Source of the DNA: a virus
Taxonomy: Duplodnaviria > Heunggongvirae > Uroviricota > Caudoviricetes
Reading direction: 5' to 3' (one strand)
Length of the DNA: 64,000 nucleotides
IMG/VR virus record: IMGVR_UViG_3300028585_000514
Position 1 is the stretch's first letter, and each line of letters starts with the position of its first letter. This document shows, piece by piece, positions 2,781 through 47,801 of the stretch. The notes under the pieces are model-generated. The model did no database searches. It saw only the letters and a list, made by a program, of their open reading frames with translations, and had not been told where the DNA came from. A program made the position numbers and the translations under genes.

Positions 2781-3944
2781 ATGAAGGTTAACGAAATCCT
2801 GTCCGAATCGATCGCTAAGCCGAAATTCACTGGTGAGTTCCCGATCGCAGTCAAGGCAATCAGCAAGAATCCATCCAATGGTCGTCGTCTCCGTAACATG
2901 GAAGAAGACACCGTCACGATCAAGTCAGCAATCGAAGCTGGCGAAATCCTGAACACCCAATTCAAACCAGTCAAAGAGCACGCGAACTACTTCGTTCAGT
3001 CGGCCTTCGACGCAACCATGAACTGGGACGAAGTCCGTCCTGCAAACCCTCGTGATCCTTCTCCTCTGTTCGATGAACTGTATGGTGCGATCAGTGTGTG
3101 GGATGTTCGCGGTATGGTTGCTACCAAGAAACGTCTCGGTAAGGTTTCGAAAGAAGCCAAAGCCACTAATATCTACAAAGAAGCAATGGCGCTGATCGAT
3201 GAACTCTGGCCTTTGGTCGAAGTCCTCGATTACCTGAAGTCGGTAACTGTCATGGCATCGGCAAAGAAAGCTGAAGCCAAAGCGGCCAAGACCGCTGAGG
3301 AAGGCGAGTACCAAAAGAAGTACACCGATCACAAAGATGTGAAGAAGGTCGTCTCGATCCTCAAGCAAGTCAGCAGCGAAGTCGAGGATGACTTGTACAA
3401 GCGTAATGCCGAATGGATGAAGCAGTCGGTCACGAAGTTCCAGAAGGAAGCAAAAGACGGCAATTCTGACTACGCTGAAATCTTCAAACGCGATGGCTTT
3501 GGTCGCCTGATCATGCAAAGCTTGTGCAAGCGTGTTTACCCGAAAGGCGCGAAGCCAAGTGAGAAGCATTTCGAACTGATCGACAACTGGGAAGGCAAGC
3601 TTGACGAAATGGCGAAGAAGGATGCAGCTACCATCGTCGACAAGTTCGTGTTCAAGAATTCCGGTAAGCTGTCGTACATCATCTACAACAAGAATAACCT
3701 GGCTCAGGTGACCTTGAAGAATGTGAAAGTGAGTCGTGGTGCAGTGGAAGCAGTGCTCCATCTTGAGTTCACTGACAAGTCTGAGTTCACCGCTCAATCG
3801 TCGGTTGAGATGGCATACTCGGTTCTTGGCAAACCATTCTTCCGCTATCCGACCCGCTTCAGCAATGTCAAGCTGCCGGATGGTTCGAAGATGAGCCAAC
3901 CTTCCGAACAACGCATGGACGAAGTGTTCGCAGTCACGAAGTAA
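2781..3944 (+). CDS. Hypothetical protein (MKVNEILSE..., capsid-targeting-like N-terminus)
   Basis: 387-aa ORF, GGAG RBS, typical codon usage. Confidence 0.9.
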   Translation: MKVNEILSESIAKPKFTGEFPIAVKAISKNPSNGRRLRNMEEDTVTIKSAIEAGEILNTQFKPVKEHANYFVQSAFDATMNWDEVRPANPRDPSPLFDELYGAISVWDVRGMVATKKRLGKVSKEAKATNIYKEAMALIDELWPLVEVLDYLKSVTVMASAKKAEAKAAKTAEEGEYQKKYTDHKDVKKVVSILKQVSSEVEDDLYKRNAEWMKQSVTKFQKEAKDGNSDYAEIFKRDGFGRLIMQSLCKRVYPKGAKPSEKHFELIDNWEGKLDEMAKKDAATIVDKFVFKNSGKLSYIIYNKNNLAQVTLKNVKVSRGAVEAVLHLEFTDKSEFTAQSSVEMAYSVLGKPFFRYPTRFSNVKLPDGSKMSQPSEQRMDEVFAVTK

Positions 3945-4006
3945 ATTTCAAGTTTCTCCGTTGAGATGACGATGTTATGATGTCATCACCTCAACGGAGT
4001 ACCGAA

Positions 4007-4318
4007 ATGGTTAACGTAGTACCAGCTGTAGCGTTTAAACAAGCGGCAGCACAACATGCTGAAGAACATAAGCGTGTGAAGTTTTATGATCTGATTGAGC
4101 GTTGCAATAAAGCGCTGAATGCCAAGATCGTGGCCTTTCGTCAAAACAAAGGTCTGAATGACATCGCGATGCAAGTGAATGTGCAGTATATGCGCCATGA
4201 GTTTGAAATCGTCGATCAAGTTATTCGTGAGTTGGAGAATGCTGGTTACGCGGTGAAGAAAGAGAATTATGATTCCCGTGATGAAGACCAGTACTTTTTG
4301 AAAATCTTTGTTAGCTAA
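4007..4318 (+). CDS. Hypothetical protein
   Basis: ORF with GGAG RBS before ATG at 4007. Confidence 0.8.
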   Translation: MVNVVPAVAFKQAAAQHAEEHKRVKFYDLIERCNKALNAKIVAFRQNKGLNDIAMQVNVQYMRHEFEIVDQVIRELENAGYAVKKENYDSRDEDQYFLKIFVS

Positions 4319-4327
4319 GGAGCTATC

Positions 4328-4366
4328 ATGAAAGTGTACGCATACAAGGAGAAGACTGACAAATAG
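4328..4366 (+). CDS. Micro-leader peptide 1 (MKVYAYKEKTDK)
   Basis: AAGGAG RBS; peptide conserved across three copies. Confidence 0.65.
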   Translation: MKVYAYKEKTDK

Positions 4367-4389
4367 GTTACCTTAACAAGGAGTCTATT

Positions 4390-4749
4390 ATGTCCCGTAC
4401 TATCCGCCGTACCAAAGAAAAACGTCTGGGCCGCAGCAGCAAAGTCCGTTCGTATCTCCGAACTATTCCTGATGAATGGAATGGTGTTCAACCAATGCAC
4501 GGTACCGTCTGGGCCTTCCCTCATGTTTGGAAAGAGGACAAGGAATACCAGGAAGGTTACTGGCGCTTTCACCGCGACAGCAAGAAGTACTACGGTTGGC
4601 AGCTGCTGAAAGGCGGCAAGACCTCTGCTCGCGCACACAATGAAAAAGAATTGATCAAAGCCATCAAGGACTTTGATTATGTTCCGGACATCCGGAACTT
4701 CATCGACGATCGTCGATACCACCGCTGGGCTAACCCATGGGATTGCTGA
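4390..4749 (+). CDS. MSRTIRR-family basic aromatic-rich protein, copy 1
   Basis: Shares MSRTIRR, YWRFHxD and C-terminal WD with the two following ORFs. Confidence 0.9.
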   Translation: MSRTIRRTKEKRLGRSSKVRSYLRTIPDEWNGVQPMHGTVWAFPHVWKEDKEYQEGYWRFHRDSKKYYGWQLLKGGKTSARAHNEKELIKAIKDFDYVPDIRNFIDDRRYHRWANPWDC

Positions 4750-4750
4750 T

Positions 4751-4789
4751 ATGAAAGTGTACGGCTACAAGGAGAAGACCGACTGTTAA
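4751..4789 (+). CDS. Micro-leader peptide 2 (MKVYGYKEKTDC)
   Basis: Starts 1 nt after the upstream stop; conserved peptide. Confidence 0.65.
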   Translation: MKVYGYKEKTDC

Positions 4790-4811
4790 GTTCCCTTGAA
4801 AGGAGATTAAC

Positions 4812-5138
4812 ATGTCGAGAACTATCCGTCGCAATCGCGACAAAAAGAAGAACAGCCCTCAACGTTACTTCGGTGACATCACTTGGTGGACCCACGACTG
4901 GATTTGTAAAGAAGAAGGTCACTGGATCAAAATCAAGAAAGAGGGCAAAGCATACGGTCGCGGTTACTGGCGTTTTCACGGTGACCGCATCAAAGGTTGG
5001 TCCTACACCAAATGGCTTCGCAACGATGCCGAAGGTCAGGCCCGCATGAAGAACAAGACTGAAATCGCTCGTTACCTCAAGGATGAGGATTACGAAGTGA
5101 TTGACCATCAACCACGCGATTTGTCCTGGGACGTATGA
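4812..5138 (+). CDS. MSRTIRR-family protein, copy 2
   Basis: Paralog motifs; AAGGAG RBS. Confidence 0.9.
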   Translation: MSRTIRRNRDKKKNSPQRYFGDITWWTHDWICKEEGHWIKIKKEGKAYGRGYWRFHGDRIKGWSYTKWLRNDAEGQARMKNKTEIARYLKDEDYEVIDHQPRDLSWDV

Positions 5139-5233
5139 TGAAAATTTATGCATATAAGGAGAAGTCGACACGACATTGTAACCATCAAGGAGCAATGTCA
5201 TGTCAAGAACTATCCGCCGTACCAAAGCACTAA
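5138..5233 (+). CDS. Micro-leader peptide 3 (MKIYAYKEKSTRH..., 31 aa; overlaps next gene out of frame)
   Basis: TGATG coupling; conserved first 9 residues with synonymous changes. Confidence 0.55.
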   Translation: MKIYAYKEKSTRHCNHQGAMSCQELSAVPKH

Positions 5234-5481
5234 AGAACTACAGCCGTTTCGAAGATCAGTATGTCGAGTATCGTAAAGGCGATAAGCCAAACACGAACTG
5301 GAGATACTTCACTGACAACGGCATCGATTCATTCAGCTTCGAAAATGCGTTTCACTATCCATGGCGCGAAGATGAAGGATGCTATCGAATCCGGCTCAAG
5401 AACGAAATCAAAAAATGGTTAGAAGACCGTGAGTATGAAATCATCGATAAGCCGCACAAACTGATGTGGGATTTATGCTAA
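5200..5481 (+). CDS. MSRTIRR-family protein, copy 3
   Basis: Paralog motifs (WRYFTD, DREYEII, WDLC). Confidence 0.9.
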   Translation: MSRTIRRTKALKNYSRFEDQYVEYRKGDKPNTNWRYFTDNGIDSFSFENAFHYPWREDEGCYRIRLKNEIKKWLEDREYEIIDKPHKLMWDLC

Positions 5482-5485
5482 AGAG

Positions 5486-5510
5486 AAAGGAGACTTCGGT
5501 CTCCTTTTTT
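5486..5510 (+). terminator. Intrinsic terminator
   Basis: AAGGAGAC-TTCG-GTCTCCTT followed by a T run. Confidence 0.9.
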
Positions 5511-5528
5511 GCGTTAATAAATACGAAT

Positions 5529-5614
5529 GGCCACTTAGCTCAGTTGGTTAGAGCCCCACAATGTGTAGCGCTGCACGTGGAGGTCGTCGGTTCGAGTCCG
5601 GCAGTGAGTCACCA
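5529..5614 (+). ncRNA. tRNA-like RNA with an extended anticodon arm and no 7-nt anticodon loop
   Basis: Canonical D arm, T arm and CCA; 25-nt central hairpin; AATAAATA box at 5516-5523. Confidence 0.7.
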
Positions 5615-5626
5615 AAGGAGTATGAC

Positions 5627-6097
5627 ATGAAAATCAAATTAGTAGAGTTTGAAGACATTCTGCCAGTTTGGCGAGATAAGCTTTGGCCAGGAAGAAATTC
5701 AGCCATTGAACATTTTAGCGCAATGACGATTGATCGTGATTACGATATGTCATTCGCGGATAGCGAACCTGTATTCTTGGCTGGTTATGAAGGCGATCGC
5801 ATTGTCGCGGTAAACAGTTGTCACTTAGCTGGCTATAATGCTTGCGGAGACTTGATGGCTCGCAGTCGTGGCTTATGGGTTGATCCCGAGTTTCGTGGTA
5901 AAGGATATGGCTACAAAATCCTGGATCGCAGCTGTGATATGGCTGGTGGATTAGGCGCAGTATTGGTTTGGAGTTTTCCGCGACAGTCGAGTTTCCAAAC
6001 GTATGAGAAGGTTGGATTTGTTCAGCTTTCGGATTGGCTGGAAGATGGTGAGTTTGGGCCGAATTGTTATGCAGCGAAACGGTTGGTAGGGTTATAA
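5627..6097 (+). CDS. GNAT-family acetyltransferase
   Basis: Motif A LWVDPEFRGKGYG; AAGGAG RBS before ATG at 5627. Confidence 0.85.
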   Translation: MKIKLVEFEDILPVWRDKLWPGRNSAIEHFSAMTIDRDYDMSFADSEPVFLAGYEGDRIVAVNSCHLAGYNACGDLMARSRGLWVDPEFRGKGYGYKILDRSCDMAGGLGAVLVWSFPRQSSFQTYEKVGFVQLSDWLEDGEFGPNCYAAKRLVGL

Positions 6098-43159: not shown

Positions 43160-43236
43160 GGCGAGTTAGCTCAGTTGGTTAGAGCAGGAAACTTCAAATC
43201 TCTTGGTCACCGGTTCGAGTCCGGTACTCGCCACCA
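43160..43236 (+). tRNA. tRNA with a TCA anticodon (opal suppressor-like, not Sec)
   Basis: Perfect acceptor, D and T arms; loop CTTCAAA; weak anticodon stem; short variable loop. Confidence 0.75.
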
Positions 43237-44440: not shown

Positions 44441-44518
44441 GCGGTATTAGCATATGGCAATGCATGAGCCTACCTCAAATTGGCTGACTTCAGGTTCGAT
44501 TCCTGATGACCGCTCCGA
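44441..44518 (+). pseudogene. Degenerate tRNA-like element with a Gly-like acceptor
   Basis: GCGGT/ACCGC ends, GCAT/ATGC D stem, TCAGG-TTCGATT-CCTGA; irregular anticodon arm. Confidence 0.45.
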
Positions 44519-47725: not shown

Positions 47726-47801
47726 TGGTGTGTTCGGCAGGTTTCGAAACTGCGACGCAGGCTTTCATATCACCCCGCTCTACCATCTGAGCTACAAACA
47801 C
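47726..47801 (-). pseudogene. Degenerate tRNA, apparent anticodon ATG
   Basis: Good acceptor and D arms and CCA; mismatched anticodon and T stems; loop ATATGAA. Confidence 0.55.

Follow-up and report, generated by a model that had tools for sequence, protein, structure and literature searches.

Why should three related genes of a phage, lying one behind the other, each be preceded by the same minute open reading frame (ORF) and by a hairpin that would close its own start? The question is raised by a stretch of 64,000 nucleotides (nt), hereafter the window, which is part of the IMG/VR virus record IMGVR_UViG_3300028585_000514 (184,871 bases, estimated to be about half complete). The source is a jumbo phage, and between positions 4328 and 5481 it carries three tandem cassettes, each made up of a leader ORF, a hairpin predicted over the start of the following gene, and that gene, which encodes a small protein beginning with MSRTIRR. 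The answer that we favor, with a probability of roughly 0.6, is that translation of every gene in this family is controlled by a leader ORF of its own, much as in cat and cmlA, probably through the pausing of a ribosome on the leader. An earlier sequence-only reading had delimited the three micro-ORFs and quoted the bases that pair in each hairpin, and all of these coordinates and pairings check out. The parts of the three cassettes are the following.

4317..4322, plus strand: Shine-Dalgarno (SD) sequence of leader 1, AAGGAG, 5 nt before the ATG (read from the sequence).
4328..4366, plus strand: leader ORF 1, MKVYAYKEKTDK and a stop, the stop lying within the 5′ arm of the hairpin (ORF list).
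4358..4394, plus strand: hairpin 1 (RNAfold, -9.8 kcal/mol), in which leader nt 31-47 pair with the SD sequence (AAGGAG), the AUG and the Ser codon.
4390..4749, plus strand: gene 1, 119 amino acids, MSRTIRR family, ending in ANPWDC (ORF list, comparison of paralogs).
4751..4789, plus strand: leader ORF 2, MKVYGYKEKTDC and a stop, with its ATG 1 nt past the TGA of gene 1 (TGAtATG, 4747-4753).
4780..4817, plus strand: hairpin 2 (RNAfold, -13.6 kcal/mol, z -3.6).
4812..5138, plus strand: gene 2, 108 amino acids, MSRTIRR family, ending in DLSWDV (ORF list, comparison of paralogs).
5138..5233, plus strand: leader ORF 3, beginning MKIYAYKEKSTRHC, 31 codons, overlapping the TGA of gene 2 (ATGATG, 5135-5140).
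5167..5204, plus strand: hairpin 3, GACA.GACATTGT / GCAATGTC.TGTC (RNAfold, -16.9 kcal/mol, z -4.2).
5200..5481, plus strand: gene 3, 93 amino acids, MSRTIRR family, ending in LMWDLC (ORF list, comparison of paralogs).

The hairpins hiding the ribosome-binding site (RBS), which the sequence-only reading had written out, are recovered by RNAfold in all three copies, with the SD sequence and the AUG inside each. The SD of gene 1 has a probability of being unpaired of 0.15; in hairpin 2, leader nt 30-39 pair with positions -5 to +5 of gene 2, and an inner helix lies over GGAG; hairpin 3 covers the AUG and flanks the SD. No Rfam covariance model matches at its gathering score, the sole hit being Mu-gpT-DE at 4793-4814 (18.5 bits, E 0.62, where the gathering score is 49). 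The three leaders share the start MK(V/I)Y(A/G)YKEK, and the third runs across its hairpin and into gene 3 out of frame. A degenerate 27-nt pattern of this start occurs three times in the window, where 0.00 occurrences are expected from 100 shuffles, and is not found elsewhere in the 185-kb genome record. The leaders are identical at 21-25 of these 27 nt, whereas the proteins behind them share 31-34% of their residues, that is, about a third. Purifying selection has thus acted more strongly on the leader than on its gene. By themselves, these data from the window make a case for hairpin and leader that is suggestive only.

The comparison covers 17 distinct close cassettes: the three of the window, one each in L004 (IMGVR_UViG_3300049460_000128), L005 (the 360-kb contig IMGVR_UViG_3300009709_000002), L006, L013, L015, L024, L026 and L032, and two each in L008, L012 and L025. 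A leader of the form M-[KN]-[VIT]-Y-[AGSNE]-Y-K-[EQ]-[KTR] together with a hairpin is present in 17/17, with 60-65 nt from the ATG of the leader to that of the gene, and in every copy a single hairpin is predicted while the 5′ part of the leader is left unpaired. The sequence-only reading had seen the first nine codons as conserved at the peptide level through synonymous changes, and the larger set bears this out: over leader codons 2-9, the entropy at codon positions 1, 2 and 3 is 0.34, 0.35 and 1.11 bits, and the exchanges include TAC and TAT for Tyr, AAA and AAG for Lys, and GAG and GAA for Glu. What did not survive the comparison is the internal AAGGAG, described as invariant, for it is so in the window only and reads AAGGAA, AAAGAA or AAGCAA in homologs. 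Since it varies in this way, it is to be read as a Lys-Glu (or Lys-Gln) codon pair and not as an SD-like nucleotide element, and an internal SD pause site at this position was dropped on the same ground. A scan of IMG/VR with the pattern MKxYxYKEK also returned matches in L016-L022, which are chance hits to the first residues of ordinary proteins in AT-rich phages; the ORF of L021, for example, MKTYVYKEKEW..., belongs to an unrelated protein of 74-78 amino acids.

These substitutions bear on the idea that the conserved 27 nt are an untranslated nucleic-acid operator, whether bound by a repressor (for which the basic protein could be a candidate), targeted by an antisense RNA in the way of hok/sok, or acting as an SD-like pause element. 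The AAGGAG common to the window copies would suit it, and there are weak sigma-70-like matches on the minus strand at 4415-4387 and 4362-4333. Yet these promoter-like hits are no more numerous than in shuffles, no antisense promoter above chance and no antisense RNA or CsrA-type site was found, AAGGAG is not kept in homologs, and the variation falls on third positions that leave the amino acids as they are. We hold the operator to be very improbable.

Beyond codon 9, the constraint shifts from the peptide to the RNA. With few exceptions, it is at leader nt 28-32 that the 5′ arm of the hairpin starts. The GAC(A) that pairs with (T)GTC at the AUG-Ser of the gene encodes Thr-Asp in those leaders that have ACN GAC, whereas leaders with the frame displaced by a base (TCG ACN CG.) have Ser-Thr-Arg there. 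In L004, where the Ser-Arg of the gene is written AGT CGA and not TCN CGN/AGA, the leader arm TCGACTC matches. With coordinates anchored on both ATGs, single stem positions show three to four types of Watson-Crick pair; the pair (39,-5), for instance, is G-C in four cassettes, A-U in four and U-A in five. An alignment-free test with chimeras, in which the 5′ arm and loop of a cassette were folded with its own or with another cassette's 3′ arm, gave a mean of -14.5 kcal/mol for native pairs of arms vs -8.9 for chimeras, and the native mean was reached in 0/20,000 permutations. The compensatory covariation that had been claimed within one genome is seen in homologs as well.

The same arrangement recurs in a distant set of 11 members with 25-35% identity (RsoM2USA, RSP15, L029, L030, L033 and L035-L040), of which 10 have an upstream ORF (uORF) at -59 to -71 and a hairpin over the SD or the AUG. 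The leader of Ralstonia phage RsoM2USA is MTQHTYMEVDMS followed by a stop, with a perfect 12-bp stem, TCGACATGTCGT/ACGACATGTCGA, of -25 kcal/mol; in Ralstonia phage RSP15 it begins MKFYMPHF and its ATG overlaps the upstream stop; in L033 it is MMIKGRGAFY and a stop, with a hairpin of -20.9 kcal/mol; and in L030 it is MKNFKERYYFKMR and a stop. The six IMG/VR loci L035-L040 form the MSRTFRRK...WDWS subfamily, which has a second leader class (MFIVHHYKASHI, MFITSHFTNSR, MTFFTSHS...), again with synonymous changes and with different compensating stems. The search for homologs with their upstream micro-ORFs, which the sequence-only reading had called for and on which it had let its case depend, thus places a uORF at the set distance in 27/28 family loci, vs a baseline of 18/143 (~13%) for any ATG uORF at that distance before the other SD-bearing ORFs of this genome.

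This ratio bears on the view that the hairpin acts alone, as an RNA thermometer, a stabilizer of the mRNA, an RNase site or a damper of a toxic gene, the uORF being incidental. RBS-hiding hairpins of similar stability do occur at other gene starts in the genome, and one may speculate that the proteins could harm the host and need low expression. Against this stand the fixed distance of the uORF in nearly all family loci, the contexts selected at its start (an SD or an overlap with the upstream stop) and substitutions with a period of three. A hairpin acting alone is accordingly quite improbable in our estimation.

If the leader is translated, its relation to the hairpin could be as follows. 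In the free mRNA, the hairpin would hold the SD and AUG of the gene, its 5′ arm being leader codons 10-13. A ribosome arriving at the end of M-K-x-Y-x-Y-K-E-K would cover and unwind this arm, and a second ribosome could then start on the gene. The geometry of the opening derives from established sizes of the ribosome footprint: with codon 8 or 9 in the P/A site, the ribosome would cover up to about nt 35-37, or in other words the outer stem and half of the inner stem, and in the opened state the AUG and SD would be free, with about 40 nt left for the second ribosome. How long the ribosome dwells at codons 7-9, in a programmed pause or arrest, would set the output. Candidate signals for this could be the supply of Lys, Tyr or Glu tRNA, or a ligand of the ribosome, K-E-K being a +X+ motif. 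In the array, this would work as a relay, leader 1 being entered at its own SD and leaders 2 and 3 being loaded by ribosomes that terminate on the preceding gene.

We infer that the hairpin is opened by translation of the leader, and that this probably depends on a pause, mere transit of a ribosome not being enough. A dependence on dwell is suggested because codons 1-9 are conserved as peptide or tRNA identity, because this conservation ends at the arm, and because the position of the stop is free. A pause or arrest switch, and not plain coupling, would predict (i) a conservation restricted to codons 1-9 and acting at the level of peptide or tRNA; (ii) an abrupt change to the RNA level at codon 10; (iii) a free stop; and (iv) more than one conserved class of leader.

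The starts and stops of the leaders are also where the most serious rival finds its evidence. In constitutive coupling, the hairpin would melt transiently whenever a ribosome passes through the leader or terminates there, with no sensing and no arrest. The translation of each gene would thereby be tied to that of the preceding ORF, and the device would serve as a relay for a fixed stoichiometry or silence read-through transcripts, as in tap-repA and mok-hok. A leader with its own SD is found not only at the head of the window array but also in the first-in-array leaders of L004, L006, L012a, L013, L015 and L025a, and the internal leaders begin at, or overlap, the stop of the preceding gene (TGAtATG, ATGATG, TGATG, TAAaATG; likewise in L008, L012, L025 and L032), as coupling would have it. 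The leaders of 12-13 codons end inside the hairpin, 21-25 nt upstream of the AUG of the gene, a good position for re-initiation; in addition, leader sequences vary widely between subfamilies, and no ligand or signal is evident. However, coupling places no constraint on the peptide, and yet nine codons outconserve the proteins, with their variation at third positions; the second leader class is likewise conserved as peptide. Nor is the stop kept, as would be expected if termination and re-initiation were the conserved step: leaders range from 12 to 53 codons, and those of 31-53 codons cross the start of the gene out of frame and end about 30-100 nt downstream of its AUG. Constitutive coupling is for these reasons possible, though we consider it doubtful.

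The position of the stop inside the hairpin, after a short Lys/Tyr-rich peptide and with an SD-like element before a would-be landing zone, could also suggest recoding, in which bypassing as in T4 gene 60, or a frameshift, would produce a fusion protein MKVYAYKEK...SRTIRR. Nevertheless, in many leaders no stop falls within the hairpin, the phase between leader and gene is 0, 1 or 2 across copies, and each copy of the gene starts with an ATG or GTG behind an SD of its own. Bypassing of the gene 60 type was rejected because no matched take-off and landing codons flank the stop-containing hairpin: the codon before the stop is AAA, TGT, CGT, CGG, CAT or TTG, and ATG only in L012a. Recoding is scarcely credible.

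Several points weigh against a leader-gated hairpin with a pause, and have to be set beside the evidence in its favor. The energies of the window hairpins are ordinary (ranks 27, 15 and 6 among 55 SD-bearing ORF starts of the window), so that support rests on covariation and on conservation in homologs. RNAalifold on a plain MAFFT alignment gave zero pairs, which is attributable to the register of the stem shifting by 1-3 nt between copies. One distant homolog, L029, has neither uORF nor hairpin. One cassette, L012a, has K-E-T and hence no +X+ motif, and leader peptides differ between subfamilies, no single arrest sequence being universal. Plain coupling, for which no pause is required, classically has leaders that adjoin an upstream stop, as these do, and no inducing signal of the leader pause is evident.

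A more specific form of sensing can be imagined, in which the leaders would be decoding sensors of anti-phage tRNA nucleases: the tRNA is cut, the ribosome stalls, the hairpin opens, and an MSRTxRR counter-measure is made. The AriB effector of PARIS targets tRNA-Lys (PMC12409363), PtuAB of retron-Eco7 targets tRNA-Tyr (PMC11555353, PMC12673091), and MKxYxYKEK consists almost wholly of Lys, Tyr and Glu codons. The counter-measure would be encoded among tRNA genes of the phage. If this were so, different leader classes would watch different tRNAs. The phage encodes tRNA-Lys, tRNA-Tyr and tRNA-Glu among the 49 tRNA genes of the 185-kb record, which neither supports nor excludes a sensor of this kind. 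We regard it as an unlikely elaboration of the proposed pause.

As to the products, the three genes are paralogs with an invariant MSRTIRR N-terminus and, as the sequence-only reading had it, basic and rich in aromatic residues (pI 9.9, 9.7 and 8.5 for proteins 1, 2 and 3; 15-17% aromatic). Searches of phage GenBank entries with the window DNA and with protein 1 gave no match, and the family was reached only by searches of metagenome proteins with a profile of the three window proteins. An exhaustive profile search collected 124 clusters at 50% identity, nearly all of 90-130 amino acids, with a near-invariant MSRT[IFYV]RR N-terminus, a [FY]H[SG][DE] motif, a block R...NK.EL.K..K[DN].[DE]YE and an aromatic C-terminal W[DW]. 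A Pfam scan of the window proteins gave no hit, and nothing like CAT, MFS or Erm. Of 120 family members, four give weak matches to DUF7295 (best E 2.5e-4) and 11 match phrog_31697 (best E 3.4e-6), both without an assigned function; the window proteins themselves reach only E 0.008-0.015 against PHROGs. A profile search of PDB found no solved relative. The structure prediction that had been proposed gave a poor model from 15 sequences (predicted local distance difference test, pLDDT, 59) and a reasonably confident one (pLDDT 77.6) from 120. The latter has helices at 17-23, 50-61, 68-93 and 106-109, while its basic N-terminal tail is disordered; it had no match in PDB or among AFDB clusters, and in the ESM Atlas only viral hypothetical clusters were matched. 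The suggestion that these are ribosome- or RNA-binding stress effectors is therefore left without support, as no family, fold or solved relative was found.

The genomic context offers a lead. The genes of the family are co-oriented within phage tRNA clusters in at least 6 of the 11 distant loci: between two tRNA-Ser genes in RSP15, and in RsoM2USA, L030, L036, L037 and L038 (immediately behind tRNA genes). The window has five tRNAs upstream of the cassettes and a tRNA-like element next to the terminator, on its downstream side. Phage tRNA clusters are general dumping grounds for accessory genes, and the context is for this reason to be taken as a lead and not as a function. In RSP15 (L027, NC_030948.1), the family gene ORF119 is annotated as a 213-nt coding sequence at locus 1645-1857; the deposited start is about 48 codons late, the family alignment placing it at locus 1502 (MSRTYRCKNF..., 1502-1857).

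The cassettes belong to one compact unit on the plus strand, which spans 3952-5510 and comprises a stem-loop, a gene of 103 amino acids, the three cassettes and a terminator. Its remaining parts are these.

3952..4001, plus strand: long stem-loop (RNAfold, -22.5 kcal/mol) with the extended -10-like TGTTATGAT in its apical loop.
4007..4318, plus strand: first gene of the unit, 103 amino acids, beginning MVNVVPAVAFKQ (ORF; start set by the orthologs of L025, L012 and L013).
5483..5510, plus strand: intrinsic terminator-like hairpin, GGAGAC TTCG GTCTCC and T6 (-15.8 kcal/mol).

The TAA of the 103-amino-acid gene stands 9 nt before leader 1, and the synteny is kept in the order of a 387-amino-acid gene, a gene of about 110 amino acids and the cassette or cassettes. 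Comparable stem-loops, whose loops carry TGnTAnnAT or TATAAT, occur at the same place in L025 (~190-235), L012 (~125-150), L008 (~1105-1150, followed by a T-run) and L013 (~1120-1150), the motifs of the apical loops being TGTTATGAT, TGTTAATAT or TATAAT. The stem-loop at 3952-4001 is likely a promoter/terminator junction and the start of the transcription unit, its function as a promoter being putative; with its -10-like loop it looks similar to the promoter-stem-loop cassettes of T4-type phages. The terminator-like hairpin at 5483-5510, which a simple terminator scanner does not list, recurs behind the last cassette of L025. In the related phages L012 (614-829) and L013 (1594-1782), the ~110-amino-acid gene and the first cassette are separated by an inserted small gene that encodes a predicted membrane protein (62-71 amino acids) and has a TGnTATAAT promoter-like motif of its own; the window does not have it.

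The DNA and RNA libraries that carry the locus are from leaf litter. Contigs from four of the RNA libraries run unbroken over the gene-leader-gene junctions (4083-4463, 4671-4893 and 4918-5241), and all four contig sets end at 5470/5471. They back the co-transcription of the cassettes weakly, as a carry-over of DNA is possible, and the fact that they leave 3744-4006 and 5472-5700 uncovered is not taken as evidence for the boundaries of an operon.

Some RNA elements in these genomes deserve a record of their own. Directly behind the cassette terminator, at 5532-5606, lies the tRNA-like element already mentioned, which scores 33.6 bits with the Rfam tRNA model (gathering score 29) and is not called by ARAGORN. 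Elsewhere in the window, at 43160-43236, 44441-44516 and 47726-47801, ARAGORN finds two UCA tRNAs of 76-77 nt and a tRNA-His with the anticodon AUG, unusual decoding tRNAs in a phage with this many tRNAs; the UCA tRNAs, labelled SeC, are more likely opal-suppressor-like. In L005, a tRNA with the anticodon CUA (1675-1749; labelled Pyl, amber-suppressor-like) lies about 1.2 kb upstream of the cassette. The single cassette of L004 is flanked (2600-2900 and 3400-4150) by long, GC-rich, structured-looking stretches free of ORFs, with T-arm-like GGTTCGAGTCC and GGTTCGACCCC...CCACCA segments in which ARAGORN finds no tRNA; tRNAs that are permuted or contain an intron are a possible reading, as are structured RNAs of another kind.

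Attenuation by leader peptides is a textbook matter for antibiotic-resistance genes and amino-acid operons, but as a fixed trait of a whole family of phage genes it is, to our knowledge, scarcely known. The family that would bear the gate in the present case is spread over jumbo and large phages of soil, litter, water and Ralstonia, and has at least two leader classes independently conserved as peptide. MKxYxYKEK would be a new candidate among regulatory nascent peptides, and the cassettes offer both a way into a family of small basic phage proteins, otherwise opaque and often encoded in tRNA clusters, and a natural set of compensatory hairpin variants for the study of RBS unmasking driven by ribosomes. 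If the pause were to sense the supply of tRNA or a molecule bound to the ribosome, these phages would own a sensor of translational stress.

It remains to set the cassette beside the systems already known, and full-text searches of the literature, which covered MSRTIRR and DUF7295 proteins and leader-peptide attenuation in phages, found no description of it, in agreement with what the sequence-only reading had supposed. Among phage elements, the T4 late genes e, soc and I-TevI are similar in that a hairpin hides the SD and AUG, so that only some states of the mRNA are translated. The T4 hairpins are opened by transcription that starts inside the stem. A T4-like late promoter inside the present hairpin was rejected, since the 5′ arm and the SD are only about 15 nt apart and this interval has no late-promoter motif; unlike in T4, moreover, the 5′ arm here is coding sequence of a conserved uORF. 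A transcription attenuator of the trp/his type was likewise set aside, the hairpin holding an SD and AUG and being followed by coding sequence and not by a U-run.

With tap-repA of plasmid R1, mok-hok and the uORF of iraD (PMC5574718; review PMC12548453), which are cases of translational coupling by a leader ORF, the cassettes would share a closed downstream RBS that needs the translation of a short upstream ORF, and internal leaders that take their ribosomes from the preceding cistron. In these systems, however, the leader ends on or across the start of the following gene and its peptide sequence is not conserved or of no importance, whereas here the peptide is strongly conserved and the stop is free. 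Antisense RNA control, a further trait of tap-repA and mok-hok, has no counterpart among the elements found here.

The principle of a leader ORF joined to an RBS-sequestering hairpin is known from cat, cmlA and erm. The sequence-only reading had invoked cat and ermC together, and the two parts of this analogy fared differently. That of a leader-controlled hairpin holds on comparative grounds and has the single-hairpin geometry of cat; the two alternative hairpin sets of erm (1:2 with 3:4 vs 2:3) have no counterpart in the one hairpin found here. What the erm leaders (ErmCL, ErmBL, ErmDL) do share with the cassettes is that each is conserved as peptide up to its stall site and free after it, with two or more classes in the present case. 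As for the macrolide +X+ arrest motif of erm, one copy here has K-E-T, and there is no sign that drugs matter to the phage.

The closest likeness is to cat-86 and cmlA: (i) a short leader ORF with a usable start, through an SD or through coupling to an upstream stop, lies directly upstream; (ii) a single hairpin, to which the 3′ part of the leader supplies the 5′ arm, covers the SD and AUG; (iii) only the first nine or so leader codons are conserved as peptide; and (iv) by analogy, a ribosome at codons 8-9 could open the stem and leave about 40 nt to the AUG. The differences are that the gene to be gated is not a CAT or CmlA resistance gene but an uncharacterised protein of a jumbo phage, that MKxYxYKEK is unrelated to their MVKTD or MSTSKNAD and no inducer is known here, and that the cassettes stand in tandem with their internal leaders coupled to the upstream stop codon. 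Thus, the principle of leader and hairpin is already known, and what would be new is a family-wide translational gate, conserved as peptide, in large phages.

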